Assembly: GCA_964609035.1 (NCBI GenBank)
Contig: CAZSQL010000003.1
Location: forward strand, 4,058-68,057
Source: an uncultured Candidatus Peribacteria bacterium
Lineage (GTDB): Bacteria; Patescibacteriota; Gracilibacteria; Absconditabacterales; Absconditicoccaceae
Reading direction: 5' to 3'
DNA: 64,000 nt
Shown here: piece after piece, positions 6,197 to 60,896 of the stretch
Layout: each line of letters opens with the position of its first letter
How positions within the stretch are numbered: position 1 is the first letter of the stretch
Translations under genes and position numbers: made by a program
Notes under the pieces: model-generated
Told to the model about the DNA's origin: nothing
Databases searched by the model: none
The model's input: the letters and a program-made list of their open reading frames with translations, nothing else

Positions 6197-6547
6197 TTAA
6201 TTTTTTTTAGAAAATGACTTCTCTCGCCCGACTAACTGCTTACTAATAGACTCAATCATCTGATTGATAACAACAAAATCTTTCAAATCAATTTCTCTCA
6301 AATCCTTGCACAATCTTATCAACAATCTCACTACTTCGATATATCCTCTCGCCTGTTCTAGATAATTCTGTTTTTCTATGTGTGAATTAGCACGATAGAT
6401 AGCAATAATCAAGTCAATAGCTTCTTTCTTGATCGTTTCTCACAGCGTGTATTTGTAATCTCTTTTGAAATTACGTACGACCAAAAATAACTTTTGCAAC
6501 AAATCGTAGGAAACTTTGTAAACAGGTAAATTATCGTATATTGCCAT
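6197..6547 (-). CDS. avd: DGR accessory variability determinant (Avd; four-helix-bundle / 23S rRNA IVS protein family)
   Basis: MAIYDNLPVYKVSYDLLQKLF...IAIYRANS...VRLLIRLCKDL. Start overlaps the RT 3' end by 17 nt. Joins ORF-track pieces 6440..6673 and 6197..6412 through a TGA. Confidence 0.75.
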
Positions 6548-7748
6548 GGCAATATCATTGAGGATAAAGATTTTTAATTTCAGAAGATTTGAGTTTTCTG
6601 ATATTGGGAATGGCTTTTGCATATGATTTTGTGAAATGGAATTGTGACCAAAACTTATTGGAGAATTTATCAATCACTTTCTTTCTGATGTTGTACGTTC
6701 TATAATGATTGAGAATTCATAGGTAGGAATTAACTATCGATTGCGTAAGCTCTTTATCAAAATTTTTGCTTTTATTCACTTCCTGCACTTTTTTGTAAAA
6801 ATTCCCAATCGTTCTTTTGCGTATATAGGTACGATACGGCTTGATATATGCTCAAAGAAATTGTGCTCACTTGGTATAATGTTGAAAATAGATTTTCTTG
6901 GGATGAAGCGTAAGATGTAATTTTTTAGTCAGAAAATCTCTAATTTTGGAAATCGCAGAAAGTAATTTTTCCTTGTCAGTATCGATGATAACAAAATCAT
7001 CTACATATCTGCCATAATACGAAAATCCTAGTTCATACTTAATATATTTATCCAAACTATCCAAGTAAATATTGGCAAATAACTGACTTGTTAAATTTCA
7101 AATTGCAAGTCCTGTGTCCTTCGGAGAGTGAAACAGACTTTTGTCGTTTGGTAATCAATTTCAGTCAGATTTGGATCATTTGATAATGCAATTCTGAGTA
7201 GAATCATGAAATATGACCTGACGAATAAGTTTGATGAGAAAATCGTAATCAATAGTCAATCTTTCCCTTTTTTCGAACAAAAATGTTTCAATTTTTTCAA
7301 ACAATATCTGTTTGTCAATGTGCATAAAAAATCACTTGATATCGAGCTTGAGAATATAAACATCGCGACTATAATTTTGCGAGCAAGAACGAAGAAAATG
7401 TTCTACTCTTTTGATGCCAAAATGTGTTCACTTTTCTAATCTGCAGCTATAACTATCATAGATAAAATGACGATCAAATAGTTCGTAAATATAATTGTAA
7501 ATCAAGTGATGAATTATTCTATCACGAAAATCCGCGGCGAAAACTTCCCTTTGGACGGGATCTTTGATGATAAAGCAGATACTGGGACTGATAGCATAAG
7601 TTTCGTTCACTAAATCATTTCGCAATTCAATAATTTTTGATTCATAATTCATTTCAAAAGCAACAGCAGAATTTGTATTTCTTTTATGCTGACGAGTATC
7701 GTAGTATGCTTGGAATAAATCATAAAGTAGCTTGTCTGTATCTAACAT
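6531..7748 (-). CDS. Diversity-generating retroelement reverse transcriptase
   Basis: 405 aa joined from three ORF-track pieces in one frame. DGR-specific motif LAIGNLTSQLFANIYL (Gly is TGA) and catalytic YGRYVDDFVII. Confidence 0.9.
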
Positions 7749-7767
7749 TTTTCATAATCATATAAAA

Positions 7768-7806
7768 GCTGACCGAACCCCGCAGAATTGCGGAGAAATG
7801 ATCAGC
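7768..7806 (-). promoter_or_regulatory. Stem-loop in the TR-to-RT spacer of the DGR RNA
   Basis: Outer stem GCTGACC/GATCAGC (with a G-T pair) encloses CCGCAGAATTGCGG (7778-7793). Lies between the TR end (7814) and the RT start (7748). Confidence 0.5.
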
Positions 7807-7813
7807 TTATTCC

Positions 7814-7977
7814 AGTTCTTGAGCAGACGACCGCTGAAACCATAATTTCTATTATTATTGTTTCGATTCCATTTATTCTGATTGAAGTTTGCATTGTTTC
7901 CACCAGCCAACCAAACGTTGGATCGTTCTCCGATATTGTTGAATTTATTATTATTCGGATTCCAGTAGCCCGCAAGG
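7814..7977 (-). repeat. DGR template repeat (TR)
   Basis: 164 nt, aligns gap-free with 8241..8404. 20 mismatches, 18 of them at TR adenines on the coding strand. Rich in AAT/AAC codons. The 3' 28 nt (GGTTTCAGCGGTCGTCTGCTCAAGAACT) is identical to VR. Confidence 0.85.
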
Positions 7978-8133
7978 AATAAAGATAGCCACTAACTTTG
8001 TCATACTATCCTAGCGAATAATATGATCTTTTACTACCATACAGTTTTATATGGTGGGCTATTGAACTAGACATACACGCTCCTTGTTCCCGTAAGAACA
8101 AAGACTCTGGCAAAAAATCTTATAGAGAAAAAT

Positions 8134-8158
8134 GGACAAAATGCAAAGCATTTTGTCC
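8134..8158 (-). terminator. Hairpin terminator downstream of the DGR target gene
   Basis: Perfect 11-bp stem GGACAAAATGC-AAA-GCATTTTGTCC, followed on the minus strand by ATTTTT. Confidence 0.5.
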
Positions 8159-8223
8159 ACCGATATTTTGTTGAATTAGATTTTTTGCTTGAAATAGTCA
8201 ACATAGACAAATAGTCGGATGTT

Positions 8224-8236
8224 TCGGCTACGCCGA
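8224..8236 (-). promoter_or_regulatory. Short GC hairpin immediately 3' of VR (candidate DGR target-recognition hairpin)
   Basis: TCGGC-TAC-GCCGA begins 3 nt past the target stop codon and VR end. Position matches the hairpin/cruciform described downstream of VRs. Confidence 0.45.
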
Positions 8237-8238
8237 GT

Positions 8239-8997
8239 CTAGTTCTTGAGCAGACGACCGCTGAAACCATAATTCCTGTTAAAATTGTATCAACTCCATT
8301 CATACTGATCGAAGTCTGCACCGTCCCCACCAGCCAACCAAACGTGGGATCGTTCTCCGATATTGCTGAAAATATCATTATTCGGATTCCAGTAGCCCGC
8401 AAGGTGACCCTTGACTTCTTTATTAAAGAATTTCTTGTATTCGTCAGAACGATCTGGTTTATCTTTCATTTTCTCTTTAAGTTCATCAACCGTCATCAGA
8501 TATTTCTGTTCAACTTCTTCCTTGCTGCAATTCTTAGCTTTCATCACTTCTCTGATAAATGCATCATAAGTAATGAATATTTGTTCTCATTTTGCTGGTC
8601 ATTCAAGATATTCTACCACGTCTCACGTAGCATTTACTTTTACTTTCATCTCTCCTTTATTATAAACATTCCTTTTTTCTTCTTTCCATCCTTTGCTATC
8701 GATTTTGAACGTATCTTCCTCGAATTCTAATGATTTAGTAAGTGTTTCTTTGGATTCTTTTTTGCTAGAAACTTTCTTTTTAAGTTCATCGCCTCCATGA
8801 AGCATATTGTAGGCTTCTTCAAAAGAAACGCCCATTTTTTCAGCGACTTTTTTGATAAGTGCTATATCTTCTTTACGAATTTTTATTGTCTGTTGAAATC
8901 ATTCTGTTTGTTTTCGTCCATCTCTAGTTTGCTTAATAGTTTCTTGTGTCTTTTTCTTTTTTTGAGAAACATATTCTGCAACTTCATCATCAGACAT
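8239..8997 (-). CDS. DGR target (variable) protein, C-type-lectin/FISUMP-like C-terminus carrying VR
   Basis: 252 aa, ATG 8997 to TAG 8239. C-terminus ...LAGYWNPNNDIFSNIGE(CGA)SHVWLAGGDGADFDQYEWSGYNFNRNYGFSGRLLKN. Three ORF-track fragments in one frame joined by TGA. Confidence 0.8.
8241..8404 (-). repeat. DGR variable repeat (VR)
   Basis: Last 164 nt of the target CDS. Counterpart of TR 7814..7977 with adenine-specific differences. Confidence 0.85.
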
Positions 8998-9342: not shown

Positions 9343-9936
9343 ATGGCTAATTTAAAAGACAAATTACTTAACTTAAACAAAGAAATACTAAAAAAAGATT
9401 TTTTAGAGAAATTAGTAAAGAGATTTTGATATACCTACGAAATGGACGATTTATCCAATCTGGGGTATATCTCCGTGATAAAAAATGGTAAACGATATTA
9501 TAATAATCAGATCAAAACCATCAAAAATCCGTATATCATCTGAGCTGCGTATATGGACTTCAAAGACTATATGTTCTGATGACCAAATTTCTTCAATAGA
9601 TACGGCTTTACGACTCAAGTTTCCAATATTTTCACCGTATATAATCTTCATTATTCCAAAGAGATCGAAATACTCGGAATCAAATATAATTTCAAGAAAG
9701 TAAAAAAAGAGTTTCTCTATGGGAAAGACACAAAAATGATCAATTATCACAATCTGTATTTTATGAATAAAGAAAGATGCTTTCTTGAATTTGTAAGGAC
9801 ATATAGCTCGTATGACGATACATTCTTCATAGATAGCTATAAGCTTTTAGATAAAGAGAATTTAGCCAAAATGATAAAAAAGTATCCTATCAAATCCGTT
9901 TTAGATAAAGTAAAAAATATAGAAAAATGTATATAA
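9343..9936 (+). CDS. AbiEi-like antitoxin / transcriptional regulator
   Basis: 197 aa. ...LSNLGYISVIKNGK.YY... resembles the AbiEi wHTH region. Stop overlaps the start of the downstream AbiEii gene by 10 nt. Confidence 0.55.
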
Positions 9937-10784
9937 ACAATATCAAAAAGTTTATTTGAGTAGATTTTGATTATTCCAAAAAAGATTTTCTTGAAATATT
10001 GGAATTATCCAATAGTTATGGATTCGACGCATATAAACTCGAAAAAGACTTTCTTCTGACGGTTATCTTGATTTTCATCTGAAGAAATTATAAGGAACTG
10101 ATTTTCAAAGGATGAACTTGTCTCAACAAAATTTATCTTGATTATTTCAGATTGAGCGAAGATTTAGATTTTGTAGTGATCAATACATGAAATAGAACAG
10201 AAAGAAAAGCGATATTAGAAGACTACAAACAGAGATTGACCAAAGATTTGGCTACACTCGGACTGGAAATCACCGATCAAAGAACGAAATATAACGAAGA
10301 TAGACAATGAATCTTCAATTTTTCGTATATTTCGCTCATAGACAATTCCCCACAAAATATTCAGATAGATATCACCATGAAAGAAAGATTAGAAATTGAG
10401 CCTGTAAGCAAACACATAAAATCGATTTTTATCAGCAAGACTATGGAAGAAAGCATTTTCATTGAAAACACAATAACCTGTATGGAATTTGATGAAATAG
10501 TTGCAGAAAAGACAAGAGCGAGTCTTACAAGAATACAACCGGCAATTAGGGATTTTTTTGATGTCTGGTATATCAAGAATTTTGCAAAATTCGACTTTGA
10601 AAGAATTATGGATTTGATAGAGACAAAACTGGAAGAATCGAATCATGAATATACTATTAATGAAAGCTTCGATTTGCTCGAAAAACAGATTGAAACAGAT
10701 TTGAAGCCCGTATTGAAAAAGAATTTCGAATTTGACCTGAAAGAGATATTCGAATTCATCAAACAACTGAAAACAAAAAAATAA
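9927..10784 (+). CDS. AbiEii/AbiGii-family nucleotidyltransferase toxin (DUF1814)
   Basis: 285 aa. LEKDFLLTVILIFI...LIFKGGTCLNKIYLDYFRLSEDLDFV is the family hallmark. Extends ORF-track 10377..10784 upstream through TGA codons. Confidence 0.8.
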
Positions 10785-12023: not shown

Positions 12024-12125
12024 AAGGTTTCAAAGGGCGCAACAGGTTTCAATAGGCTGAAAAGAGCATGACTTTTGTAACCCTTGCAACTTTGTAACCT
12101 TTGTAACTTTGTGGCCATTGAAACT
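12024..12125. repeat. Dyad array of GGTTTCAAT / TTGTAAC words (family 1)
   Basis: Left arm GGTTTCAAAGGGCGCAACAGGTTTCAATAGG, centre AAAGAGCATGAC, right arm CCTTGCAACTTTGTAACCTTTGTAAC. Same layout at 30944, 38755 and 43925. Confidence 0.7.
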
Positions 12126-12133
12126 TGATAACC

Positions 12134-12598
12134 TTATACTTTTAACTTGATAACTGTCTTTATATCTTCCAACCTATAACCTTTTCTCATAAGTTTTTGA
12201 ATAATATCAAATCAATCAACTCATCTTTTTTTGTAAGAATCTATTTCTTTTCTAATTTTCTGAAAAACACCAACAGATATATCTTCTTGATAGTCTTTTA
12301 TCACTTCATTTATCAATTTTTTGTCTACTCATTTTTGATATAATTTGTTAGTCACGGCAATTACTGGCTTTCATTTATTTACCAATTCGCTCCTAATATA
12401 ACTTTCTGCAAAAACTCTATCATCAGCAAATTTTTTTGATTTGAGATAATCCATCGTATATCTTATTTCATCACTATTATATCATTTTTGTTGCAATTTA
12501 ATTCTCAATTCTTTTTCAGTTTTTGGATAAACAGAAATGTATTTTAAAGCATACTGACAACAATCAGAATATAATGTTTTCTCTTCTTGTGTTGCCAT
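12134..12598 (-). CDS. recX: RecX family regulatory protein
   Basis: 154 aa. ...CCQYALKYISVYPKTEKELRIKLQQKGYNSDEIRYTMDYLKSKKFADDRVFAESYIRS... three-repeat helical RecX pattern. Confidence 0.7.
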
Positions 12599-15981: not shown

Positions 15982-17844
15982 TTAAATTTTATTACCATAT
16001 CAATCAATTTTGATTTTAGAAAACAATCAATTAGATAAATCATAACCACTTCACTTCCTATCCATTTTAGAATAAGTTTTATTAATCTTCAAATCACCAT
16101 TTTCATCTAAATCATTAACAATATTAACATAATAATATACAAGATCACCACTCTTATTCTTCAATTGTATTATTATATTGGATGAAATTTTATCAGAACG
16201 GAAAACATACACATCTTCTATATTGTAGTTTGCATTATCTTTCAAAGACAAAACATTACTTTTATCAACATTTACCAATCTTTGGAAATTATGTCATCAT
16301 TTATTAAATGAAACTAAAACAAAACTAGTACCTGGTATAATATCAGAAGAAACTTTTCACATACAATCTACTACTTTTTTTGTTTTTTTATTTAAAATAA
16401 GATTGTTTCAATCAACTTTTGTAACAACACAATAATTGTCATAATTTTTTATTGAGTATCTAGTATTACAAAAATCAGAAGATAAATCTTTTTGTTCTTT
16501 TAGGTCAAAAATAATTCAATCGTTTGAATTTTCCATATATTTTAAGGCAACCATAGAACCATCCTCCATCTGCACAGCATCACTTTTGGTAGCAAAGTCA
16601 CCAATTTTTTCTAAAGTATTAGAATCTAATACAGAAATAGAATCAACTCCATATCAATTATCTATAAAAAACACATTACCCACGCCAAAAACTTTTTTTA
16701 TAAAATCACGTTTATCGCCATCAGAAACTGGATTTTGTGAAAGTTCATCCAAATCAAACACAATTCTATCTCCTATATATCCAGTTTTAGATCAAATCTC
16801 ATCTCAATTTTCTTTAGCATAAAAATGTATTCTAGTTTTATTACCAAAATATGTACGAGTATATACTATCTCTTTATCTCATATTTTTTTTATTCACCAA
16901 GGATTACCTTTAATCTTTTTATCAAAGATTTTTTCTCATGTTTTTAAATCAAAAATACTATATTCATTATCAGCAGCAAAAGTATTAACATCTCTTAAAC
17001 CCACATATTTATTTCAGCCATTTTCAAAAACATTTACGTTATGATCTACTTGTCACAAAATTTTCATATTTTTTAAATCATATATATAATGAGAATCATT
17101 TGAGACAATATCAATAAATCTATCGTCCAATTTTCTAACAAAATAAGATCCATGCCTATTTATATCTAATCATAAATTTTCTATACGCTCAATATTATCT
17201 CATTTTTCATCTACAAAAACATTACGATATCCATCAATATTTTTTAATTCATATTTATGCAACGCAAAATCTTTTTCTAGAAGCTTCTTTCATCAGATAC
17301 TTTCAATTTTTGTTGACAATGTTTTTGAAAGTAATTCAGAAGTTTCCTTTTCTTTTAATTCTTTTTCTTTAACCGACATCTCATCAGAAAGTTTTTTCAT
17401 CTCAGTTTGAATATTTTCCTGTATTTTAGGAAAAGAAACCATCGCATCATAATTTTCTTTTAATCTTTTTGATTCTAATTTTAAAGTCTCAATATCTCAT
17501 TTTAGTTTTTCTATAGATTCATCTCTATTTTTTGTTTGTCCTTCTAATCTGATATCCAATTTTTTTATTTGTGATTTTTTAATATCCAAATAATCAATCA
17601 AATCTTTTTTACTAGATCTAATTTTTTTTATATTAGATTTTCTATCTTCAATTTCTTTTGATATTGAATCTGATATAGACTTATTATCTTTTAAGGAATC
17701 AAGAGTTTGTGATAATTTTTCAATTTCTTGCTGATTTTTAGAAATCTCCTCATCATATTTGAATAATAAATCATCCCAATTTCATCAAGATTCTGTGAGT
17801 TCATTTAATACTTGTAATTTTTTGTCTTTTGACAATGAATTCAT
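15982..17844 (-). CDS. Hypothetical coiled-coil protein with beta-rich C-terminal domain
   Basis: 620 aa. About 230 aa of N-terminal heptad-like K/E-rich sequence. Same frame as ORF-track 16051..16278. ATG to TAA. Confidence 0.55.
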
Positions 17845-24260: not shown

Positions 24261-24356
24261 CGTTTATATTTAATAGAATTAAAGTTTTTACTATTCAATT
24301 TTCACAGCGAAAAGAAATAAAAATTTTTTAATTAAATCTCACTTCTAATTTCTCAC

Positions 24357-25919
24357 TTATCACTTATCAATTAAATAAAGTTCTCTCTTGTCCAATATTT
24401 TCATCCCTCTTTTCAAATCATTTTTGTCATTTGCATAAAGTTGGCACAAAACGTCTCATTTTTTTACTAATTCTCAAACCTGCTTATTTAAATAAAATCA
24501 AGCTTGCTTATCCAATGGTGCTCCAAAAATTCTACATATTTTTTTCAACAATTCTACATCCATACTTTTGAGTTTACCAGATTTCTTGGCTATTAGTTTC
24601 TGAGAAAATTTAGCCAATGGTAGTTCTTCGGAGTCCAAAACTCATAAATATGAAGTATTTTTATAATCTGGTTTTACATTATGAATACTATTTTGAGACT
24701 GAATTAACTTTTGCATATATTCCCATGCCAATCAAGACTCTAATTGTTTTTTAGCTAATCAAATAGCCTTATCTCATCTTGCCAATCAAACTAACTCTAT
24801 CAATTTAGCAGACAAACTAATCGCTTTTTTCTTTATATCTTTTGAAAAAATTTTTTTGTTTTGTAATACTCTAAGAGCTTCCCTCGTTTGTAAAACTGCT
24901 CCAATTCACTTACCAATAGGATTATCTGCATTTGTTATATCCACAAAAACCTTCATTCCAAGCTTTTTTCAAATATATTCAAAATGTCACGCGATTCTTT
25001 TTGCTGTCTTTTTGTCAGGTATCTTTCAATTCTTTCAGACAGGTAAATCAATAAGACAATATTTTGTTCATCCAGCATAAATTTTAGCCATTATACTAAT
25101 TGCAACCTTGGCATAAGCTTCCATATACAATGGATATGAAACTTTTATAATTCTATCATTTGCAGGAGCAAATTTCAAAGATTTTCAATTTGCCAAACAA
25201 GATCAAGTCTTATCCACCAAATGCTTCATCTCTTGGACAGAAAATTCAGTATCCATAAGTACTTCCACACACTCACCCGTTGCAGCAGGCGAAGTAATAG
25301 CTTTTGAAAAAGTTTTTGGACTAGAAATACCAAGTGAACCAAGTATTGGAACTATAATCATAGTTGTTTCATTTCATGGCACACCACCAATACAATATTT
25401 TACAGCAGTATCATGTTTAAATTTTATCATATCTCACATCTCAGCAGAATACTTAGCAGTCAAATAAAGTTCTTCTTCATCACTAGGATAAGCAAAACTA
25501 CAAGCTGCATAATATGCAGTAAGTAAATCACTAATTTTGCCATCTGTCATATCTCTCATCAAAGCTTTTATTTCCTCCTCATTTAATTTTTTGCCCAAAA
25601 GCTTTTTCTTTATAGCTTGCAAAGACAATGGATTTGTCTCAAGAGTAGATATAGAAACAATATCTCATTTTTTTATTTCATATTTATCAAAAATATCTTG
25701 CGTAATTCAAACTTCTCAAATATCCACTAAATCATTGGTCAAATCAACATTTACAACTATATTCTCCCACTTATTGTTTTTTTTATAAGACAAAATAACA
25801 TCATCAATCGCTGTTATGCCAAATTTAAAAGCTTCAGCCTCATTCAACAAAATCTGCAAGCTATTTCCTGCTCTTATATCTATTTGTTTTACTTTTACAG
25901 GGAAGGTTTTATGTTTCAT
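24357..25919 (-). CDS. AMP phosphorylase (thymidine phosphorylase family), paralog 2
   Basis: 520 aa. KYCIGGVPGNETTMIIVP. Same architecture as 17851..19371. ORF-track pieces 25716..25919 and 25434..25628 are in frame. Confidence 0.8.
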
Positions 25920-27716: not shown

Positions 27717-27904
27717 GTTTTATTTTAGAATTTTAAAACATCATTTAATTATATATTATTTCATATTTTTTTGCAAATTTTTGAGGATTTTGTAAATGTA
27801 CTTGTTTTATTAATCACCCCCTATCCCCCGGGAATATAATTTACTTGCAAAACCATATTTTTTCAAATAGATCTCGGTAGTCGGGTTTGTTTAATAAAAC
27901 AGAT

Positions 27905-28250
27905 GGAAATTATTTTCTGTCTCCCCATCTTGCAGGCGCGTTGTCATTGCGAGGTTTACTCGGCAGTATTGCCGAGAAATCGAAGCAATCTGCACTCGCG
28001 CCTACATTGATTGTGAGTTTTATTTTCTGTCTCCCTCCTCTTGCAGGCGCGAATTCGAATTCGCGCCTACATTGATTGGAGATTTTGTTTTCTATCTCCC
28101 TTTGTCCTAAATCACCCACTATGCCCCTCTTTGATAAAGAGGGGGAATATTATCTGAATAAGCACCTCTTTGCCTGCCCCGCAGAACTGCGGTTGGTCAA
28201 AGAGGACCACCCTCTCCTCAGAGGAGAGGGGTTGGGGGAGAGGTCTGACT
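27905..28250. repeat. Cluster of GC-rich REP-like hairpins (locus 1)
   Basis: TGCAGGCGCG...CGCGCCTACA units (28041-28070 contains the perfect 24-nt palindrome AGGCGCGAATTCGAATTCGCGCCT). Also CTCGGCAGTATTGCCGAG, CCCCTCTTTGATAAAGAGGGG, CCGCAGAACTGCGG, CCCTCTCCTCAGAGGAGAGGG. Homologous to part of 61090-61250. Confidence 0.75.
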
Positions 28251-28254
28251 ATCA

Positions 28255-30921
28255 TTAACTTCTTCACTTCTTAATCCTATTTACCACAAACGCCAACACA
28301 AACAAAACCAACAATATTATTGCTATTTGCAACCACATCATAGATGATAATGGTTTTGTCTGAAATATTTCTGCCAAAAATGGAACATAAACCACCAAAA
28401 ACACTAATCCAACAGACAATAATACTGCACCAAAAAGCCATTTGTTTGACCAAAATGGTAAATTATATTCATCTCTAATCATCCATATTCTAAGCATCTC
28501 CAACAAAGTCAAAAGCACAAAAACTCAAGTCCTAGCTTCCACAAGATCTATTGAGTAGTTTTCCATAAACAAAAACAAACATCAAGCAGTCATAGCAATA
28601 GATAGGATTATTATATTTATTATCATATTTCTATCTACAATCTTAGATCACAATCTTCTAGGTTTGTGCGACATAATATCTGGACTAGCTGGATCTACTC
28701 ACAAAGCAAGAGCTGGCAATCCATCGCTCACAAGATTGATCCACAAAATTTGTATTGCTATCAAAGGCAAAGGTAACCCAATCAACACACTTATAAAAAT
28801 AATCAGTATCTCAGCAAAATTGGTAGAAAGAAGATAATTTACAAATTTTTTGATATTATCATAAATTCATCTTCACTCATATATGGCGTTTACTATCGTA
28901 GCAAAATTATCATCCAAAAGTATCATATCACTTGCTTCTTTAGTCACATCTGTGCCAGTAATTCACATCGCCAGACCAATATCAGCATACTTCAAAGCTG
29001 GAGCATCATTGACCCCATCTCCAGTCATAGCTACTATATTTCATTTTTTCTTCAAAAGTTTGACTATTCTCTGTTTGTGAGCAGGACTAACTCTAGCAAA
29101 TACTCAAATATCATCTATCATTTTTCATAATTTTTTGTCATCTATCTTGTCCAATTCCAGCCCATCCATAGCCATTCACTTAATTCAAAGTTCATGAGCT
29201 ATAGCTTTGGCTGTAATCACATTGTCTCCAGTAATCATAACTACTCTAATCCCGGCTCTTTCACAAATAGCTATCGAATCCCTTACTTCTATTCTAGGCG
29301 GATCTATCATCGCCTGCAACCCCACAAACACCAATCATGATTCTAATTGATAATTGATAGTTGATAGTTGATAATTATCAATTTTCAATTTTCAATTATC
29401 AACTGATTTATATGCAAACCCAAGCACTCTCAAAGCAGATTCTGCAAATTTTTTATTTTGATCTAATATTTGTTTCTTATCTTTTTCTGTCATCTTTTTT
29501 ATCTCACCATTTATCAACACATGACTACACTTCTCCAATAAAATTTCAGGCGCCCCCTTACTAAACATAATTCACTCTTCACTTTTCACTCTTCACTCTT
29601 CACTATATATCGTCGTCATCAACTTCCTCTCAGAATCAAAAGGAATTTCATCCAACAATTTATATTGTTTTTCCAAATCTTTTCTTACAAGTCATCATTT
29701 GATAGCACTGACAAGCAAAGCCACCTCAGTAGGATCTCAAACAATATTTTCTCAATTTATAGCAGAATTGTTGCACAAAACTCAAATTTTTAATATCTGT
29801 TCTAGTGAATTTATATTTTCTTTATTTTTGGACAGAAAATCTTTTTTTCCAAAATCTTGATAACCTACTCCATCCAAATCAAAAACCTTATCGTCTACAA
29901 AAATATGTTTTACTGTCATTTCATTTTTGGTCAAAGTTCATGTTTTGTCTGTACAGATAATATTTACAGATCACAATGTCTCTACACTAGAAAGTTTTCT
30001 CATCAAGGCATTTTTTTTGACCAATCTTTTTACTCACAATCACAAAGCAATAGTCACTACAGCAGGAAGTCACTCTGGTATCGCTGCTACAGATAAAGCT
30101 ATAGCTACCAAAAATGCTTGCTGCCAAGTATTTCAGACAAAAAATATAGCACTCACAAAAATAACTGCACATATCACAATCACTACAGCACCAAGCCATT
30201 TACTCAATTTATCTAAATCTTTTTGTAAATTAGTTTGTTTTTCTGGAGCTTCTTGTATCATACCAGCAATTTTACCAATCTCAGTCTGCATACCAATAGC
30301 TACCACAATAGCTCTACCATGTCATTTGGTCACTACAGTACCAGCAAAAAGCATATTTTTTTGGTCTCACAAAGCCGAATCTTTGTTTATAGTTTCTATA
30401 TTTTTGGCAACCGGCATAGACTCACCTGTCAGTACAGCTTCGGCCACTTCAGCACTCATAGATTGTATTATACGAGCATCAGCTCAGATTTTATCTCCTG
30501 CATCAAAAATCAAAATATCTCATACAGTCAAATACTGTGAATCTATCAATATCTCTTTTCCATTTCTGATTACTCTAGATTTCAAACTAGCCATCTTTTT
30601 CAAAGATTCTATAGACTTCTCAGCCTTGTATTCTTGTACAAAACCAAGTATTGAATTTAAAATTACTATCAAAATAATCACCACACTATCTACGGCTTCT
30701 CATACAAATATGGAAACTACAGCAGCAATAATCAATATCAAAATAAGAAAACTTTTGAACTGATTCAAGAAAACTTTCCAAGCACTGATTTTCTTTTCAT
30801 TGGTCAAAATATTTAATCCATATTTTTCTTGCTTATCTTGGACTTGTTTGTCAGTCAATCAAATTTCCACATCTACAGCCAATTCTTTGGCTACATTTTC
30901 TATAGGTTTTTGGTAATACAT
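28255..30921 (-). CDS. P-type cation-transporting ATPase (P2, Ca2+/SERCA-like)
   Basis: 888 aa. ICTDKTGTLT (Gly is TGA), [28 protein letters not shown]. The ORF-track C-terminal piece 28264..28518 ends at a TGA, so the gene continues 3 codons to TAA. Confidence 0.9.
29347..29402. repeat. Imperfect 56-nt palindrome of TTGATAATT words lying in frame inside the ATPase CDS
   Basis: TTGATAATTGATAGTTGATAGTTGATAATT|ATCAATTTTCAATTTTCAATTATCAA. Translates without stops as ...[21 protein letters not shown]... just before [10 protein letters not shown]. Confidence 0.8.
29571..29603. repeat. Tandem TTCACTC/TTCACTT words in frame inside the ATPase CDS
   Basis: TTCACTCTTCACTTTTCACTCTTCACTCTTCAC encodes SEEGRVKSEEG immediately before the conserved KGAPE. 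Confidence 0.75.
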
Positions 30922-30943
30922 AAACGACAGTTAAAAATAAAAA

Positions 30944-31080
30944 AGTTGCAAAGGTTACAATGTCTTAAAGGTTACAATGTTTCAAAGGCTATAAAGTTGC
31001 AAGAATTGCAAAGTCCATACTCTTTGAAACCTATTGCAACATATTGAAACCCGTTGCAACCTTTGATACCTTTGGAACCT
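30944..31080. repeat. Dyad array of TTGCAA/TTACAA/TTGAAAC words (family 1, inverted copy)
   Basis: GTTGCAAAGGTTACAATG...centre AGTCCATACTCTTT (reverse complement of the AAAGAGCATGG centre)...GAAACCTATTGCAACATATTGAAACCCGTTGCAACC. Confidence 0.7.
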
Positions 31081-31291
31081 TTTAATAATTATACCCACCA
31101 TACCCAAAAATAGCAAAAACAAACAAAAGCTAAGCGAAGATTTGTTTGACAAATAAAGAAAATATTAGATTGAAAAAAAATAACCAATCATTATACTAAG
31201 CACTAGTAATAAAGTTATCAAGTTCATCAAGTTTATAAAGTCTTATACTTTTAACTTGAAAACTTTTAACTTTATAACTTTACACTAACTT

Positions 31292-31682
31292 GGGGATGTA
31301 CAGGCTTCGATGAAAGATTCTCATATCTAATAACTGCCACTACTCGATGAGCGTACCGAGTATACTAATCGCTCAGCATCTAAAAATGCAAACTCAAAAA
31401 ACTTGTTAGCGAGAGCTAACGCCTTCGTTTTGAACTACGCTTAGTTCTACGATTGTATCAACCGGTTCTGCTAGACACCTACTAGGTAGACGGAGACATA
31501 AGTAGGTACCGCTACCTCTGGTAGCAAATGTCGATATGACAAAAAATCCATTGCCTGTTTGTTGGCTTTTGGATTTGCCAGTCATAAGGACACTAAATCT
31601 ACGGCTTAATAAACAAACTATTGTGGTAAGCGTTATTATTTATGTCTTTTAGACGCGAGTTCGACTCTCGCCATCTCCACCA
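31292..31682 (+). ncRNA. ssrA: tmRNA (transfer-messenger RNA)
   Basis: 5' GGGGATGTACAGGCTTCGATG..., 3' ...GGACGCGAGTTCGACTCTCGCCATCTCCACCA (T-arm plus acceptor). Candidate tag frame GCA AAC TCA...TAC GCT TAG gives ANSKNLLARANAFVLNYA. Confidence 0.9.
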
Positions 31683-32184: not shown

Positions 32185-33795
32185 ATGTGAGCTACTATAA
32201 TAGATATTCCATTCAATAAAAAAGAAATAGACTGATTTATGTATTATCATCGAGATTATGATAGTCGACCAGTAGTTTATCTTATAAAAGGAGAAAAACA
32301 TATCTATATTGGAGAAACAACGAATGCTTATAAAAGGATGAAAGATCATCTAAAGAATACAGAAAGAACAGATTTATTAAATGAAGTATTAATTTTATAT
32401 GATCCAGAATATAATAAATCAGCCACATTAGATATAGAATCTAAATTAATAGAATATATTTCTGGAGAAGATTCCTTTATTTTACAAAACAGAAACGATG
32501 GAATAAGGAATCATCAGTATTATGATCGTGAAAAATATCTTGCCAAATTTGAAGACGTGTGGAAAGACTTACAGAACAAAAGAATAGTATATAAAGATTT
32601 GAATGAAATAAGAAATAGTGATTTATTTAAATATTCTCCATATAAATCACTAAATAACGATCAATATAATGTTGTTACAGAAATATACGAAGATATTAAA
32701 AACAAAAGAAATTGAACATATATTGTTAATTGAGAACCAGGTACATGAAAAAGTGTTGTAGCAAGCTATTTAGTAAAATATTTAAAAGATAAAAACGATA
32801 CAAAGAATTTGAAAGTTGGTCTTGTTGTCCCTATGGCATGATTAAGAAATACTTTTAAAAAAATCTTTAAAAATATAGATTGATTGAAATCTAGTATGGT
32901 TATTTGACCAAATGAGATTGCAAAAGATTATTCAAACACAAACAAAACCCCATATGATATATTAATTGTAGATGAAGCTCACAGACTACAAAAAAGAAAA
33001 AATATAATGTGATATGGTGCTTATGATGATGTTAATAGAAAACTATGATTATCAAAAGAATCAACTCAATTAGATCGATTAATTAATTTATCAAAAACAC
33101 AAATATTATTTTATGATAAAAACCAATCAATAAAACCATCAGACGTGAATTCAGAAGATTTTGAAAAAATTAAACAAACAAAACATTATGTTTTAAAAAG
33201 TCAGATGAGAGTTAATTGATGAAATGAATATTTGAATTTTATAAATAATTTTTTCGATTGATTAAATCCAGATTTTATTAAAGTAAAAAATTATGATTTT
33301 AAATTATTTGATAATTTTAAAGATTTTAGAAATAATATCTTAGAAAAAGATAAAGAGTTCTGATTGTCTAGAATAGTCGCTTGATATGCACGATCACGAA
33401 CTTCTAAAAATAACCCCAATCAACATGATATAGAAATAGATTGAGTAAAAATGTTTTGGAATACTACAAATAAAGATTGGGTAAACTCTGAAAACGCTTT
33501 ACATGAAATATGATGTATTCATACTGTACAATGATATGACCTAAACTATGTATGAGTAATTTTATGAAATGAGCTATCTTACAATAAAGAAACTGGGGAA
33601 TTTATTATTAATAAAGATAATTATTATGATAAAAATTGAAAGAATTGAATTACAGATATGTATGAATTAAAAAGATATATAATAAATATATATAAAACCT
33701 TAATGACACGCGGGATTAAATGAACTTATATATATGTGGTAGATGATAATTTAAGAGAATATCTAAAAAGTAAAATAAAGTGATTTTTTTACTAG
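32185..33795 (+). CDS. GIY-YIG nuclease domain fused to DUF2075 (Schlafen-like) P-loop ATPase/helicase
   Basis: 536 aa. VVYLIKGEKHIYIGETTNAYKRMKDH (GIY-YIG), NGEPGTGKS (both Gly TGA), ILIVDEAHRL, SQMRVNGG, AGYA(CGA)S(CGA)TS, IHTVQGYDLNYVGVILG. The start may instead be 32239. Confidence 0.75.
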
Positions 33796-37491: not shown

Positions 37492-37962
37492 ATGACAATA
37501 CCAAAAAATTGCCCACTAACAGAAACAGAGATCAAAAAAATGATAAAAGTAGCAAGAGACACACGTAAAAATGCATTTTCTCATCGCTCTATGCACAAAA
37601 TATGAGCTAGTGTTTTGACAATGGATGGTAAAATATTTGGATGATGTAATATAGAAAGTGCAATTAGTGGACTTGGAACTTGTGCAGAACGCTGTGCAGT
37701 AGACAATGCTGTTTCAAACTGAAAATATGATTTTAAAGCCGTATGTGCAATAGATTCGCATCTCACACCAGTTTGTGGAGCTTGTTTACAATACATACTA
37801 CTCTTTTCACAAGTCTCTGACCAAGAAGTATGGATAATAAACGCTGATATAAAATGAAATTATGAAATTAGATCACTTACAGAATTACTACCAGAATGAT
37901 ACAGGACAAAAAGTAATTTAGAATCAATCAGATCATACAGTAAAATAAAGAAAAAGAAATAG
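37492..37962 (+). CDS. cdd: Cytidine deaminase
   Basis: 156 aa. zinc-binding motifs GTCAERCA (Arg is CGC) and PVCGACLQY. Confidence 0.85.
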
Positions 37963-38100
37963 TCATTAGTCATTAGTCATTAGTCGTTAATCGTTAGTTC
38001 CCATATAAATTAAATAACAAATTGGGGCTATTGACTAATAGCTAAAGACTACAGAGACTATTATTAACTTGAAAACTTGATAACTTTTAACTTGATAACT
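37961..38100. repeat. Word-repeat dyad (AGTCATT x3 / TTGACTAAT) followed by AACTTGATAAC words
   Basis: AGTCATTAGTCATTAGTCATTAGTCGTTAATCGTTAGTT...ATTGACTAATAGC, then AACTTGAAAACTTGATAACTTTTAACTTGATAAC about 35 nt upstream of the LemA ATG. Confidence 0.65.
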
Positions 38101-38132: not shown

Positions 38133-38753
38133 ATGACAGGAGAAGAAATTACAACAGTAGAAAATGTTGTTGCAACATGAGATGCAATGGCAAAAAGCAT
38201 CAACACAAACACAGTATTACTTATAGTTTGATGATTTATAGTTTTGTATATTATAGTAAGATACAATGCTCTAGTTAGACTCAAAAATCATATCAAAAAC
38301 TCATTTGCAGACATCGATGTACAAATGAAACTTAGATTTGATCTTATAGAAAACTTAGTAAACACAGTAAAATGATATGCAACACATGAAAAAGAAACAT
38401 TAGAAAACGTTACAAAAGCAAGAACTAGTTTTTTGAATGCATGATCTCCAAACGAAAAATTGGCTGCAGATAACATGCTTAGTGGAGCATTGAAAAGTCT
38501 TTTTGCTGTATCAGAAAACTACCCTGATCTAAAAGCAAATCAAAACTTCTTACAACTACAGACAGAATTGTCTGATATAGAAAACAAAATCGCTGCTGCT
38601 AGAAGATTTTTCAACTCTAGCATCAATGAATACAATTCTACAATACAATCATTCCCTACAAATATTGTAGCTAAATTATTTGGATTTAAATACGAAGAAT
38701 TTTTTGCTATCAAAAATGAAGCAGAAAAACAAGCACCTAAAGTACAATTCTAA
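38133..38753 (+). CDS. lemA: LemA family protein
   Basis: 206 aa. N-terminal TM, RYNALVRLKNHIKNSFADIDVQMKLRFDLIENLV...ENYPDLKANQNFLQLQTEL...ARRFFN. Confidence 0.85.
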
Positions 38754-38754
38754 A

Positions 38755-38880
38755 ACACAAAGGTCTCAACAGGTTGCAAAAAGTTTCAATAGGTTGCAAT
38801 GGGTTTCAAGGGCTTCAAAGAGCATGGCCCTTGCAACCTTTGCAACTTTTGTAACGCTTGTAACTTTGCAATATTTTTAT
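38755..38880. repeat. Dyad array of TTGCAAC/TTGTAAC words (family 1)
   Basis: Right arm CCTTGCAACCTTTGCAACTTTTGTAACGCTTGTAACTTTGCAAT has a 9-nt period. Centre CAAAGAGCATGGCC. Left arm holds the inverted words. Confidence 0.7.
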
Positions 38881-38910
38881 AACATTTAAATTACTTTAAC
38901 CAAAAAAACT

Positions 38911-43911: not shown

Positions 43912-43924
43912 TAAAATTGACTGC

Positions 43925-44095
43925 TACAAAAGATTACAAAGGTTTCAATAGGTTTGCAATAGGTTTCAATAGGTTTCAAAGGGTTACAATAGGTTTCAAA
44001 AAACATGGTATTTGCAACCCTTGAAACTTTGTAGCCTTTGAAACATTGCAGCCTTTGAAACTTGTAACTTGTAACTTTTAACTTTCTAACTATTA
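43925..44095. repeat. Dyad array of AGGTTTCAAT / CTTTGAAAC words (family 1)
   Basis: Five to six phased AGGTTTCAAT units, centre AAAAACATGG, then TTGCAACCCTTGAAACTTTGTAGCCTTTGAAAC...TTGTAACTTGTAAC running to 5 nt before the ATG at 44099. Confidence 0.7.
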
Positions 44096-44098
44096 CCC

Positions 44099-45403
44099 AT
44101 GCCAGAATTATCAAAACATTTTCAATCTAGGAAACCATCTGCAATCAGGACTGCACAAATCGAATTTATGAAAAGAGCTGATGACACGATAGCAATAAAC
44201 ACAGCTATATGAAACGTATCTTTGTCAATGCATCCAGCTATGCAAAAAAGAATGTTTAATTTGAAAAACGAAAACAGTCCATTTAAAAATTGAGTAGTAA
44301 AATATACTGCAACAGTATGAGAAAAAGAGACAAATGATGCATTTTTAAATATTATTGCATCTAGTGGCTTTGATACAAAATGATTGTATTCTCAGATCAC
44401 AGATGGATGAAGCCAAGCTATGGAATTGATCATATTATGAGTTTGTGGTGAAGCTGGAAAAGATGAAAAACCATTACTTCTCATAGATGCTGCATACACA
44501 AACTATGTCGCTATGGCAGAAAGAGTTGGCAGAAAGACCATATCTGTAAGTAGAAAATTACAAGACGATGGACAATTTACATTGCCAGATATGTCTGAAA
44601 TAGAAAAAGTGATTGAAACACAAAAACCATGAGCTATAGTAGTAATACCTTACGACAATCCTACATGACAGTACTTTAATCTAGAAAAAATGAAACAAAT
44701 AGCTCAACTTTGCGTAAAACATGATTTATGGATGATAAGCGATGAAGCATACAGAGAATTTTTTTATACATGAGAAGATGTATCTAGTATCCGATGAATC
44801 ACAAACAATGAAGTACCATGAATACAGTGAAGAAGAATTAGTATAGAAACATCTTCAAAAGTTTGGAATGCTTGTGGACTTAGAATAGGCGCAATCATAA
44901 CAGACAACCAAGATTTTCATACAAGATCGGTTGCCGAAAATACAGCATGATTGTGTTCAAATGCTATAGGACAATATATTTTCTGATCCTTGGCACATGA
45001 ATCCAAAGAAGATTTAAACAAACGGTATCAAGATCAAAGAAAATATTATTTTGATATGATGAACAAACTTACAATTGAATTCAAAGATAAATTACCATGA
45101 ATTATAGTATCATCTCCAGATGCATCTATATATTCTGTAGTAGATGTAAAAAACATAGCAAAACCTTGATTTGATGCTATGGAATTTGTACTATACTGTG
45201 CTCAAAAAGGATCAATAGATATTAATTGAAAAAATCACACACTACTAGTATCTCCCATGACATGATTTTACAAAACAAAAAATGGAGAAACAAATCCATG
45301 ACTTACTCAAATGAGAATCGCATACGTAGATACACCAGAAAAAATGGCTATAGTGCCAGAACTCTTTGCTAAATTATTCCAAGAATTTGAAAATCTAAGA
45401 TAA
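44099..45403 (+). CDS. PLP-dependent aminotransferase, class I/II
   Basis: 434 aa. ...YDNPTGQY..., ETSSKVWNACGLRIG (PLP-Lys context). Confidence 0.8.
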
Positions 45404-57948: not shown

Positions 57949-58878
<930 letters not shown>

Positions 58879-58911
58879 AGTAATGGACAATTGAAAGTGG
58901 ATAATTGATAA

Positions 58912-59253
58912 TTATATTCCATTGTTTTTGGTATTTTTTACTATAACAACCAAAATCTTGATAATTTCCTGACAATCATTTTGCAAATCAAAAACATTTT
59001 CTTTAAATCATTTATCTAAAATCTCCAACCAATATTCTGTTTCTTGTGCCTCTTTCAGGGAGATTCATATTTTATTTAAAAAATCTTTTCTACTTACTGC
59101 TTGTTGTGCCTCTGAAATGTTAGCTCAAACACTTGTACCACTTCTAAACAACTGAGATGCTATTTCAAAATATTTTTTATCTTTTAAATTTAAATAAAAT
59201 TTACTAATCTTTATTCAAAATTCTAAAGACTTTTCCTTAATTATATTCCCCAT
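58912..59253 (-). CDS. Four-helix-bundle protein (23S rRNA IVS / Avd-like family), orphan
   Basis: 113 aa. QLFRSGTSVGANISEAQQAVSRKDFLNKIGISLKEAQETEYWLEIL. Confidence 0.7.
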
Positions 59254-59280: not shown

Positions 59281-59345
59281 TTATCAACTATCAATTATCA
59301 ATTATCAATTATCAATTATCAACTATCAATTATCAATTAATTATC
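59281..59345. repeat. Tandem ATTATCAA(T/C)T words overlapping the comM-like stop codon
   Basis: TTATCAACTATCAATTATCAATTATCAATTATCAATTATCAACTATCAATTATCAATTAATTATCAAC. Same words as the in-CDS palindrome at 29347. Confidence 0.7.
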
Positions 59346-60896
59346 AACAAACATACTCTTACTTCTATACTGCATAGCTTCAGCCAAATGTTTGATTTCT
59401 AAATTTTCTACTCACTCCATATCAGCTATAGTCCTAGCAAGCTTTATAATTCTATGAACCACTCTTGGTGACAAAACTAATTTTTCAGAAGCATTGGTAA
59501 GGAATTCTTTGATTTCATCTGACAAGGGGATATATTTATCTATATCATTGCTACCCATATCAGAATTAGAAACAATATTTGTACCAGCAAACCTTTGTTT
59601 TTGTATATGCCAAGCTTTGATAATCTTGTCTCTAATGGACTGACTGCTCTCTCATTTTATATTGTCCAAAAGTTTGTCTATATTTTCTCTAGGTATTTCC
59701 AATATCATATCTATCCTATCCATCAAAGGGCCAGAAATTTTACTTTGATAATTTTTTACATCATTTATGCTACAAGTACAAGCTCTTTCTGGATCTTTGT
59801 AATAACCACATTTACAAGGATTCATACTAGCTACAAACATAAAATTAGCCGGATAATTTACACTACCAGATACTCTAGAAATACTAATATTTTTGTCCTC
59901 AAGTGGCTGCCTGAGGACTTCCAATGTCTCTCTAGGAAATTCTGTAATTTCATCAAAAAACAAAACTCACTTGTGTGCCATACTCACCTCTCATGGAGTA
60001 AGATTGGATCATCATCAGACTATAGAAATTTTGGATGCTGTATGATGTACTTGCCTAAAAGGTCTTTGTACAATCAATGGATGTTCTTTGTTTAGTTTAC
60101 CTACTACAGAATAAATTTGAGACACTTCCAAAATTTCTTGAAATCACAATGGTGGCAAAACACTCTTAAGTGCTTTACTAAGCATAGTCTTTCCACTCCC
60201 TGGAGCTCATACCATCAGTAAGTTATGCAAACCAGCAGCAGCGATGGAGAGTGCTCTCTTTGCTAAAATATGTCATTTGATATGTTCAAAATCTACATCA
60301 AAATCAAATTTGATATCATATAATTTCTCTACATCTTTGGATTCTGAAATACAATTTAAATCTAATCAATCAATAAAATATCATACCAATTGATCAAAAC
60401 TATCCAATGGATATATATTTATCCCCGATATGTACTCTAATTCATAAAGATTTTCACTAGGTACAAAGAAATCTTTGTATCATTTTTTGATAGCAGAAAT
60501 CACGGATGGAAGAAGTCAGTTTACTCTTTTGATCTTACCATCCAGTCACAATTCTCCAAAAAATAAATATTTTTGTAAATCTTTTTTATGATTTATACTT
60601 CATTCATGTAGCAACACCAATATAGCTACAGCCATAGAAAGATCGAATGATGTGCCTACTTTTCTAATATCTGATGGCGCTAAATTTAAAACAAACCTTT
60701 TGTTTGGCAATAGTATGCCAACATTGCGAAAAGTCGCTCTAAGTCTTTCTTTAGATTCTTTGATAGCAGCATCTGGGAGTCAAATAATCTCTATACCAGG
60801 CAAAGATCTATTGCAATCCGCTTCTACCAAAATTTCGTAACCATCCAATCATACATTTGTAAATGTTTTTGTCATTCGTACCATCTTGTTATTCAT
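59337..60896 (-). CDS. YifB/ComM family Mg-chelatase-like AAA+ ATPase
   Basis: 519 aa. Lon-like N-domain, MVGAPGSGKTM (Gly is TGA), VLFFDEITEF, MNPCKCGYY. Confidence 0.85.

Follow-up and report, generated by a model that had tools for sequence, protein, structure and literature searches.

The 64-kb window analyzed here (64,000 nucleotides of contig CAZSQL010000003.1, assembly GCA_964609035.1) comes from an uncultured Absconditabacterales (SR1) host and carries, at positions 28255–30921 of the minus strand, the coding sequence (CDS) of an 888-amino acid type IIA P-type Ca2+-ATPase of the LMCA1/SERCA kind. Two low-complexity repeats lie within this gene, a palindrome in loop 2 (repeat 1) and a one-armed tandem array in loop 1 (repeat 2) of the nucleotide-binding (N) domain, and both are translated, in-frame heptanucleotide simple-sequence DNA of the same hairpin-prone kind that crowds the intergenic regions of the window. 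The two segments are lineage-specific expansions of exposed, length-tolerant N-domain loops. As to how they arose, we give roughly an even chance to an origin in which heptamer arrays grew in place, were inverted by fold-back, were filtered for frame and stop codons, and were shuffled by recombination.

Two heptamer arrays translated within a Ca2+-ATPase gene

Repeat 1 (29347–29402), recognized by direct reading and by an inverted-repeat search, is a 56-nt inverted repeat without a spacer, whose two 28-nt arms (29347–29374 and 29375–29402) pair at 24 of 28 positions (86% complementary). On the plus strand the left arm consists of (TTGATAA/TTGATAG)x4 and the right arm of (TTATCAA/TTTTCAA)x4, and Tandem Repeats Finder (TRF) resolves each arm into ~4.5 copies of a 7-nt unit. 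An earlier note on this DNA had described an imperfect 56-nt palindrome at this position, which is borne out by the arm pairing and by the shuffles below, and had given its unit as a 9-mer, which is to be replaced by the heptamer. A pairing of 24/28 at zero spacing was reached in none of 100 dinucleotide-preserving shuffles of the whole gene, the best of which gave 20, and the counts of TTGATAA words in the window exceed those of all shuffles. The sense-strand RNA of repeat 1 is computed to fold with -18 kcal/mol (z = -3.85), a value that none of 200 shuffles equaled. Stem pairing runs a few bases past the words on each side, giving an extended stem at 29338–29410 of the minus strand (-23.1 kcal/mol for the fold of 29335–29410), and the flanks carry Ser codons in the window (K-S-V and E-S-G) in place of the K-I/N-V and E-E-x of the seven closest relatives. 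The four mismatches are all in the left arm of the coding strand, which has TTGAAAA where full pairing would call for TTGATAG, and on direct reading perfect pairing in this arm would create an in-frame TAG. The palindrome codes for residues 507–527 of the pump, 21 amino acids of loop 2.

Repeat 2 (29571–29604, minus strand) is a 34-nt tandem array of 4.9 copies of TTCACTC, or GAAGAGT on the coding strand, with 92% matches by TRF; its word gives four overlapping 14-mer matches where 0.7 are expected, which is above all shuffles. It codes for SEEGRVKSEEG, residues 440–450, in the β-hairpin turn right before KGAPE, and two in-frame TGA codons lie within it. It lacks an inverted partner and does not fold (0.6 kcal/mol, z = +1.7), and TTCACTC forms no further array anywhere in the 64-kb window. 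When a strict lag-autocorrelation filter was applied to the window, clean periodic segments were found at lag 7 only, and both ATPase repeats were among the five segments retained.

Genetic code of the host and integrity of the ATPase gene

The closest named relatives of the window are Candidatus Absconditabacterales, and the host reads TGA as Gly, which is genetic code 25. The G+C content of the window is ~27%, and under table 11 most of its genes look fragmented; the ATPase gene is split into more than seven open reading frames (ORFs), and each break is a TGA. Under table 25 the CDS contains no stop codon, and it is open solely when TGA is Gly. The reading that neither repeat breaks the frame thus stands with TGA as Gly and falls under table 11, and translation under table 25 confirms that both repeats are in frame in an intact ATPase gene with the peptides reported for them. 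The CDS has 34 in-frame TGA codons, which make up 34 of its 63 Gly codons, and its DKT-TGA-T, PE-TGA-LP, and M-TGA-ITG motifs are correct once TGA is Gly. Residues G395, G579, and G653 fall in columns that are invariant Gly among 25 homologs, an invariance that is gone if TGA is read as Trp. Both hallmarks of code 25, TGA at conserved Gly sites and genes that are open only with a sense TGA, are therefore seen in this window.

Under code 25 the P-type ATPase motifs are complete, including the DKTGT phosphorylation site, and the protein matches LMCA1, the Listeria Ca2+-ATPase (6zhf), from end to end (residues 18–875, E = 1.3e-190). These motifs, the ten-helix membrane domain, and the full-length similarity are those of type IIA Ca2+ pumps such as LMCA1, SERCA, and SPCA. 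The AlphaFold model of the pump has a mean predicted local distance difference test score (pLDDT) of 74.9 and TM-scores of up to 0.89 against SERCA, SPCA, and LMCA1 structures, though the sequence modeled was the database copy, in which the TGA codons are read as Trp, and confidence at the glycine motifs is lowered as a result.

The reassigned codon bears directly on the repeats. On the sense strand of both, TGA occurs in every frame, and under the standard code none of the six frames of the palindrome and none of the sense-strand frames of the TTCACTC array is open, whereas under code 25 two frames of the palindrome and six of the TTCACTC array are open. Reading TGA as Gly removes one of the three stops, which makes it easier for such repeats to survive in coding DNA.

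The repeats extend exposed loops in one lineage

In the model both repeats are placed between β-strands of the N domain, at positions that are either turns or of low pLDDT. Loop 1 is the predicted turn between strands 434–441 and 449–456, directly before KGAPE, and loop 2 is predicted to lie between strands 497–508 and 530–539, with a pLDDT below 50 at residues 511–522, so that the structure prediction agrees with the loop location that had been proposed from the sequence. In SERCA, the counterpart of loop 1 carries the T1 tryptic site (Arg505), which is exposed and lies just upstream of Lys515 of KGAPE, the residue labeled by fluorescein isothiocyanate (FITC).

Relative to LMCA1, which is gapped at both sites, the window pump has eight additional residues at loop 2 and five at loop 1. 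Comparison with 28 database orthologs and ~25 further genomic orthologs (from DPANN archaea, other Patescibacteria, and SR1 RAAC1) gave a loop 2, which follows FAYK, of 8–14 residues against 25 in the window, and a loop 1 that is ~5–7 residues shorter than that of the window. Three Absconditabacterales lineages, designated L164, L165, and L166, likewise have short loops of 13–16 codons. The earlier suggestion that the two segments are lineage-specific is upheld by this alignment, and no homologous residues were found at these positions in the distant lineages compared.

Different repeats occupy the same two loops in relatives

Ten orthologous ATPase genes from relatives, including L001–L007 and L164–L166, were compared with that of the window. 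All 11 genes, from independent assemblies, are intact under code 25, and the order of the ATPase gene followed by an IF-2B-family gene is kept wherever the contig of a relative reaches past the ATPase. Loop 2, which holds the TTGATAA palindrome in the window, holds a GGATAAT/TGATAAT palindrome in L003, GTGCAGA...TCTGAAC palindromes in L002, L004, and L005, decayed words of the AAGTT family (frequent between genes in the window) in L001, four GTTGAAA words in L007, and no recognizable repeat in L006. Loop 1 holds a one-armed GAAGAGT array in the window and in L001, a GAAGAGT array with an inverted ACTCTGA arm in L002, a CCCCCTT..AAGGGGG hairpin in L004, and two small G+C-rich hairpins in L003, L005, and L007. 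Loop-2 folds are significant in six of eight alleles, each of which beats at least 194 of 200 shuffles, and the alleles of L001 and L006 have no significant fold. The alleles at these loops span 17–41 codons, and the loop peptides are wholly different between alleles and between loci. All alleles at both loops of the 11 genes are multiples of 3 nt and free of TAA and TAG, where the chance of a single allele being in frame and free of these codons is roughly 8%. This pattern suggests that the segments are translated and filtered by selection and are not bypassed. Translational bypass of untranslated inserts, for which the byp elements of yeast mitochondria offer a parallel, was rejected on the same grounds.

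The repeat types are distributed at odds with the gene tree, which groups the genes, once the loops are masked, as ((L001,L004),(window,L002)), then L006, then ((L003,L005),L007). Identity is 93.6% between L001 and L004 and 92.6% between L003 and L005, and the loop-2 types differ within each pair; the window and L003 are only 74% identical and share a loop-2 type. As judged by these comparisons, repeat type is incongruent with the tree. In a sliding window, the nucleotide identity of L002 and L004 peaks at 90–94% exactly at loop 2, and among the ATPase genes of the window, L001, L002, and L004 the identity of one pair swings from ~70% to 97–99% along the gene. These identity profiles show the gene to be a recombination mosaic within the clade of the window and indicate frequent homologous recombination among these Absconditabacterales lineages, and part of the incongruence between repeat type and tree is therefore due to such recombination, which shuffles the alleles.

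Other features of the alleles point to change within the loop itself. The loop-2 alleles of L004 and L002 are near-identical except for a single 21-nt block, which is three heptamers; this one example is direct evidence for frame-preserving slippage. Moreover, the first unit of each array overlaps the sequence of array-free relatives, GTTGAA(A) within the K-I-V-E codons and AGTGAA within S-E, and the presence of these seed words is compatible with growth from a local seed. A metagenome scan recovered the L006 and L007 lineages only, with no strain-level variant of the window allele, and in an empty-site comparison L164–L166 proved too diverged for clean insertion boundaries to emerge.

Among 278 ortholog pairs scanned for indels, lag-7-periodic inserts were found only in loops 1 and 2 of the ATPase and in one loop of the IF-2B-family protein in clade B. 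The latter insert adds 11 amino acids (SGKLKVEKGK / SGKGKVKSGD) encoded by AAGTTGA/AAATTGA words, and lies in frame at 13844–13875 in L003, at 6245–6268 in L005, and at about 6045–6125 in L007. The indel scan also found a CCCTCTTCTAAGGGGG hairpin in frame in the PYNP-family gene of L007 (about 7060–7100), where it encodes KNPLNPSSKGD. The IF-2B-family and PYNP-family genes are both neighbors of the ATPase gene.

Word arrays and hairpins between genes

Arrays with units of 6–10 nt were counted across the window against a map of code-25 ORFs, in which 85% of the window is coding. There are 24 strong arrays, 17 of them intergenic, four abutting gene ends, and three within CDS, all in the ATPase gene, so that the density of strong arrays is ~30–40-fold higher in non-coding than in coding DNA. 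This census supports the view, already put forward from the sequence, that the ATPase repeats are of the same kind as the intergenic DNA. A large number of the intergenic arrays stand in inverted pairs and form long hairpins of -40 to -48 kcal/mol, and word families are common to different loci and species.

The TTGATAA family occurs at three loci of the window, namely repeat 1, a degenerate TAATTGA array at 58881–58913 in the intergenic region between the convergent thyA and 23S-rRNA-IVP-family genes, and a one-armed TTATCAA array of 8.4 copies at 59281–59345 that overlaps the 3' end of a comM-like gene; these copies align at the heptamer level only. The recurrence of the repeat words that the earlier note had placed near 58885–58915 and at 59281–59345 accordingly holds for TTGATAA and does not hold for TTCACTC, while its identification of the comM-like gene (ORF 59337–60896) agrees with the Mg_chelatase and ChlI domains found there. 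A likeness of TGATAAT-type words to Fur-box repeats was set aside, the spacing not being 7-1-7 and the copies lying in CDS or at gene 3' ends. Two genes of the 23S rRNA intervening sequence protein/bAvd-type four-helix-bundle kind are present in the window, at 58912–59253 (minus strand), standing alone between two TTGATAA-family arrays, and at 6197–6622 (minus strand), as part of a diversity-generating retroelement.

The array at 59281–59345 gives the comM-like gene its final codons and stop (GTT GAT AAT TAA, or VDN*), and arrays that begin in final codons and give the stop were also found at 24353–24373 and 37960–37998 in the window, at 16566–16642 in L001, and at 6452–6484 in L004. The ends so supplied include DKG* of PYNP, those of the comM-like gene and a cytidine deaminase gene, and, in L004, that of the ATPase gene, and gene C-termini in this lineage are thus partly repeat-derived.

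A family built from 9–10-nt GGTTTCAA/GGTTGCAA words has four copies in the window (12040–12140, 30925–31100, 38750–38885, and 43915–44100), with arms of variable word number, and three full-length copies fold with -40 to -47 kcal/mol. The copy at 30925–31100 is an intergenic hairpin directly upstream of the ATPase start (-39.5 kcal/mol) and is conserved in L002. All four copies share a non-repetitive core, AAAGAG(C/T)ATGG, which suggests that some of the word DNA behaves like a dispersed element; the core was found in none of the 185,579 GTDB species genomes searched.

In the divergent region upstream of the ATPase there is also a tmRNA gene (31292–31682, plus strand; Rfam, 89 bits; ARAGORN tag peptide ANSKNLLARANAFVLNYA) with word arrays on its flanks. 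Downstream, between the ATPase stop and the IF-2B-family gene, a cluster at 27900–28250 has a G+C content of 43–49% in a 27% G+C genome and consists of a unit of ~70–100 nt in two direct copies with a GCAGGCGCG...CGCGCCTAC hairpin, followed by CCCCTCTTTGATAAAGAGGGG and CCCTCTCCTCAGAGGAGAGGG hairpins; its small CCCC..GGGG hairpin is similar to the inserts that relatives have in frame in loop 1. The tmRNA is the sole Rfam match, and neither the repeats nor the G+C-rich cluster gave one.

Comparison with described repeats

Of the repeats described so far, the nearest in kind are heptanucleotide long simple-sequence repeats (LSSRs), of which the short tandemly repeated repetitive (STRR) heptamers of cyanobacteria are one example. 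In many bacteria, heptamers outnumber other long-unit repeats and are attributed to polymerase slippage (Mrazek et al. 2007, in so far as it is summarized in PMC4679880). The TAACTGA repeats of Beggiatoaceae, Cyanobacteria, and Bacteroidetes are intergenic and overlap stop codons, with occasional arrays in ORFs, where they code for LSVISYQ peptides located for the most part at the periphery of the protein (PMC4679880), and the GGGAATC repeats of Xanthomonas and Nostoc include inverted pairs (PMC4692102). The window arrays share the defining features of LSSRs: head-to-tail units in the 5–11-nt range beyond chance expectation (TRF period 7, 4.3–4.9 copies, 91–92% matches), over-representation in non-coding DNA (17 intergenic and four gene-edge arrays against three in CDS), and a change in whole-unit copy number between relatives, for which the L004/L002 block is the single example. 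The exact array (TTGATAA)x3 is itself widespread among cyanobacteria and Bacteroidota. The likeness extends to 7-nt head-to-tail units in two to tens of copies, to enrichment between genes, often abutting stop or start codons, to occasional inverted pairs, and to rare copies in ORFs that give 7-amino acid-periodic peptides, the LSVISYQ of TAACTGA being close to NYQLSTI of the window. The window differs in having many word families instead of one, mostly as two inverted arrays that form long hairpins, and in having its in-ORF copies in the middle of a conserved enzyme whereas the TAACTGA copies are at the protein periphery; in addition, window-type repeats are found in different species at the same two loops, and the host reads its genes with code 25. 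What is new here is the occurrence of inverted arrays within CDS, their mid-enzyme position, their recurrence and turnover at the same two loops, and their dependence on UGA being Gly. No description of such palindromes or repeats was found in the literature on Absconditabacteria, Vampirococcus, and Absconditicoccus.

Rickettsia palindromic elements (RPEs), of which the repeats had seemed reminiscent, are ~150 bp long and form ten consensus families with a conserved peptide (Ogata et al. 2000, as represented in PMC10969869). The resemblance holds in that both are selfish-looking palindromic DNA found between genes and in frame in housekeeping genes, translated at fold-compatible positions in protein loops, which for the intact and conserved ATPase gene is the position predicted by the model. 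It fails on several other counts. The window repeats, at 56 and 34 nt, are not ~100–150-bp multi-copy consensus elements but strings of 7-nt words that align at the word level only, with no consensus beyond the word, and their peptides vary by allele, none being conserved among copies at the ATPase loops. The host phylum also differs, no sequence similarity to RPEs would be expected, and the separation from them is one of description. In palindromic form the two repeats part ways, 29347–29402 forming a hairpin and 29571–29604 not (z = +1.7).

Borg extrachromosomal elements carry fast-evolving, locally arising tandem repeats between and within genes (bioRxiv 10.1101/2022.05.18.492195). As in the window, tandem repeats within genes add disordered segments to the proteins. 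The in-gene units of Borgs are reportedly multiples of 3 nt and direct only, whereas the window unit is 7 nt, so that only three-unit steps keep the frame, and its arrays are often inverted. Short dispersed intergenic hairpins, often just past stop codons, also recall repetitive extragenic palindromes (REPs), bacterial interspersed mosaic elements (BIMEs), and miniature transposable elements with inverted repeats (MITEs) (PMC3733652, PMC10969869), and the GGTTTCAA family has a conserved core as a dispersed element would. However, the window arms are variable-number word arrays, and neither a GTAG/CGTC-type tag nor terminal inverted repeats, a target-site duplication, or a transposase associated with them could be identified; at the loop boundaries there are no constant termini or duplications such as MITEs have, and the lengths run from 17 to 41 codons.

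Origin of the loop arrays

In the account to which we give an even chance, a heptamer that the loop already contained, such as the GTTGAAA of its ancestral K-I-V-E codons or the AGTGAAG of S-E-E, would expand by replication slippage, and within CDS only changes of three units (21 nt, seven amino acids) would survive. A fold-back template switch would copy the array in inverted orientation to produce the palindrome, and homologous recombination between strains would shuffle the loop alleles. Selection would act as a filter only, for frame, stop codons, and a harmless peptide, and the polar, 7-amino acid-periodic peptides are most likely passive loop extensions without a function of their own, provided that they are neutral. 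The segments had earlier been called inserted, a term that we do not retain, since the overlap of the first units with the sequence of array-free relatives and the three-unit slip make growth in place at least as likely.

There are considerations that weigh against growth in place. Slippage alone cannot yield an inverted second arm, and fold-back synthesis is a step that we infer. The same few word families occur at unlinked loci and in species that are only ~70% identical in protein, and a core that is conserved and non-repetitive is seen in at least one intergenic family; with purely local growth these two facts are less easily reconciled than with the copying of pre-formed elements. Among the sequences compared, there was no clean empty-site allele within one species, clade B loci are nearly without strong intergenic arrays and yet have kept those in CDS, and the neutrality of the peptides is itself an assumption.

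The main rival is that dispersed hairpin elements were copied in ready-made form, an account that we regard as possible and as clearly less probable than growth in place. Here palindromic selfish DNA of the RPE, MITE, or REP kind would insert, mostly between genes, and would survive in CDS only when in frame in a permissive loop, the ATPase loops having been hit repeatedly. The core that the four GGTTTCAA copies share beyond word periodicity and the presence of the TTGATAA family at three loci speak for such copying, as do the CCCYTT..AAGGGG hairpins that recur in ATPase loop 1 (L003–L005 and L007), in PYNP of L007, and in the intergenic DNA downstream of the window ATPase. The unrelated repeat types at one site in ATPase genes that are 93% identical outside the loops look like replacement, and both flank codons are changed in the window in such a way that the stem lengthens. 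Terminal inverted repeats, target-site duplications, and constant length are nevertheless absent at the loops, the TTGATAA-type copies are alike at the word level only, and the GGTTTCAA core appears in none of the 185,579 species genomes. No transposase or REP-associated tyrosine transposase (RAYT)-like gene was seen in 16 window ORFs scanned, most ORFs being outside that scan, and the 21-nt slip shows that in-place evolution also occurs. It is improbable, though less so than the two readings that follow, that the loops have a regulatory or interaction role in the N domain that is specific to the lineage, or that the mRNA hairpin pauses translation to aid folding. Nearly all members of the subclade have expansions at both sites, clade B with its few intergenic arrays among them, and significant hairpins are found in six of eight loop-2 alleles, but neither the peptide sequence nor the length nor the hairpin potential is conserved, significant folds being absent from L001, L006, and loop 1 of the window; alleles also turn over between ATPase genes that are 93% identical outside the loops, and L164–L166 have short loops.

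That gain and loss of 7-nt units shifts the frame and so toggles the calcium pump by phase variation seems very unlikely to us, even though 7 is not a multiple of 3, so that a single-unit slip would be a frameshift, and the TTCACTC tract is 92% perfect and among the five cleanest lag-7 segments of the window. It has just four to five imperfect copies, a housekeeping ion pump would be an unusual target, and the arrays of relatives vary in sequence and not in copy number. All 11 orthologous genes are intact with no frame-switching length polymorphism among them, and the sole unit-level difference is of three units with the frame kept. Least credible of all is an artifact, whether a mis-assembly across the repeats or a decaying pseudogene; low-complexity repeats and a gene that is shattered under the standard code might raise the suspicion, but the repeats, at 34–56 nt, are probably shorter than typical sequencing reads, the ORF is complete under code 25 with all P-type motifs and an end-to-end LMCA1 alignment, and ten independent assemblies of relatives carry either similar in-frame repeats at these loops or short intact loops.

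Other features of the window

The diversity-generating retroelement (6197–8997, minus strand) is complete, with a bAvd-like gene (6197–6622), a reverse transcriptase (6531–7748), a template repeat (7811–7977), and a variable repeat (8238–8404) at the 3' end of its target gene (8239–8997). The template and variable repeats are 167 nt long and 87% identical, and 18 of their 21 mismatches are at T of the template on the plus strand, that is, at A on the coding strand, which is the adenine-specific signature of such retroelements. The thyA gene (57949–58878, plus strand) contains an imperfect in-frame 39-nt (13-codon) tandem duplication at 58426–58502, just before the catalytic PPCH motif of thymidylate synthase. 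Likely defense genes are found at 9343–10784, where an AbiEii-family toxin gene (9927–10784) has an upstream partner ORF, and at 32185–33795, where a Schlafen-group-3-helicase protein with a weak, sub-threshold GIY-YIG match adjoins a MazG-like gene.

Implications

For annotation, translated low-complexity palindromes in SR1 and Gracilibacteria genes call for caution, because they mimic frameshifts, assembly errors, and intergenic DNA, especially when the wrong code is used. The finding joins three themes that are mostly studied separately, heptamer simple-sequence repeats, selfish DNA carried in frame as in Rickettsia, and the reassignment of a stop codon. It is a tentative thought, which we hold with less confidence than growth in place, that Absconditabacterales may carry undescribed hairpin word-array elements, with words of 7–10 nt, inverted arrays, and in some cases conserved cores, that spread or are copied from locus to locus, take up most of the intergenic regions, and repeatedly colonize the same permissive loops of core enzymes. 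If so, the loops colonized would be those of the Ca2+-ATPase, the IF-2B-family protein, and the PYNP-family protein, and the reassignment of UGA to Gly would make G/A/T-rich words translatable and thereby open protein loops to word DNA. In closely related uncultured bacteria, one and the same pair of loops in an essential-type ion pump has repeatedly been filled with different repeats, a natural experiment on the conversion of non-coding, hairpin-prone simple-sequence DNA into protein.

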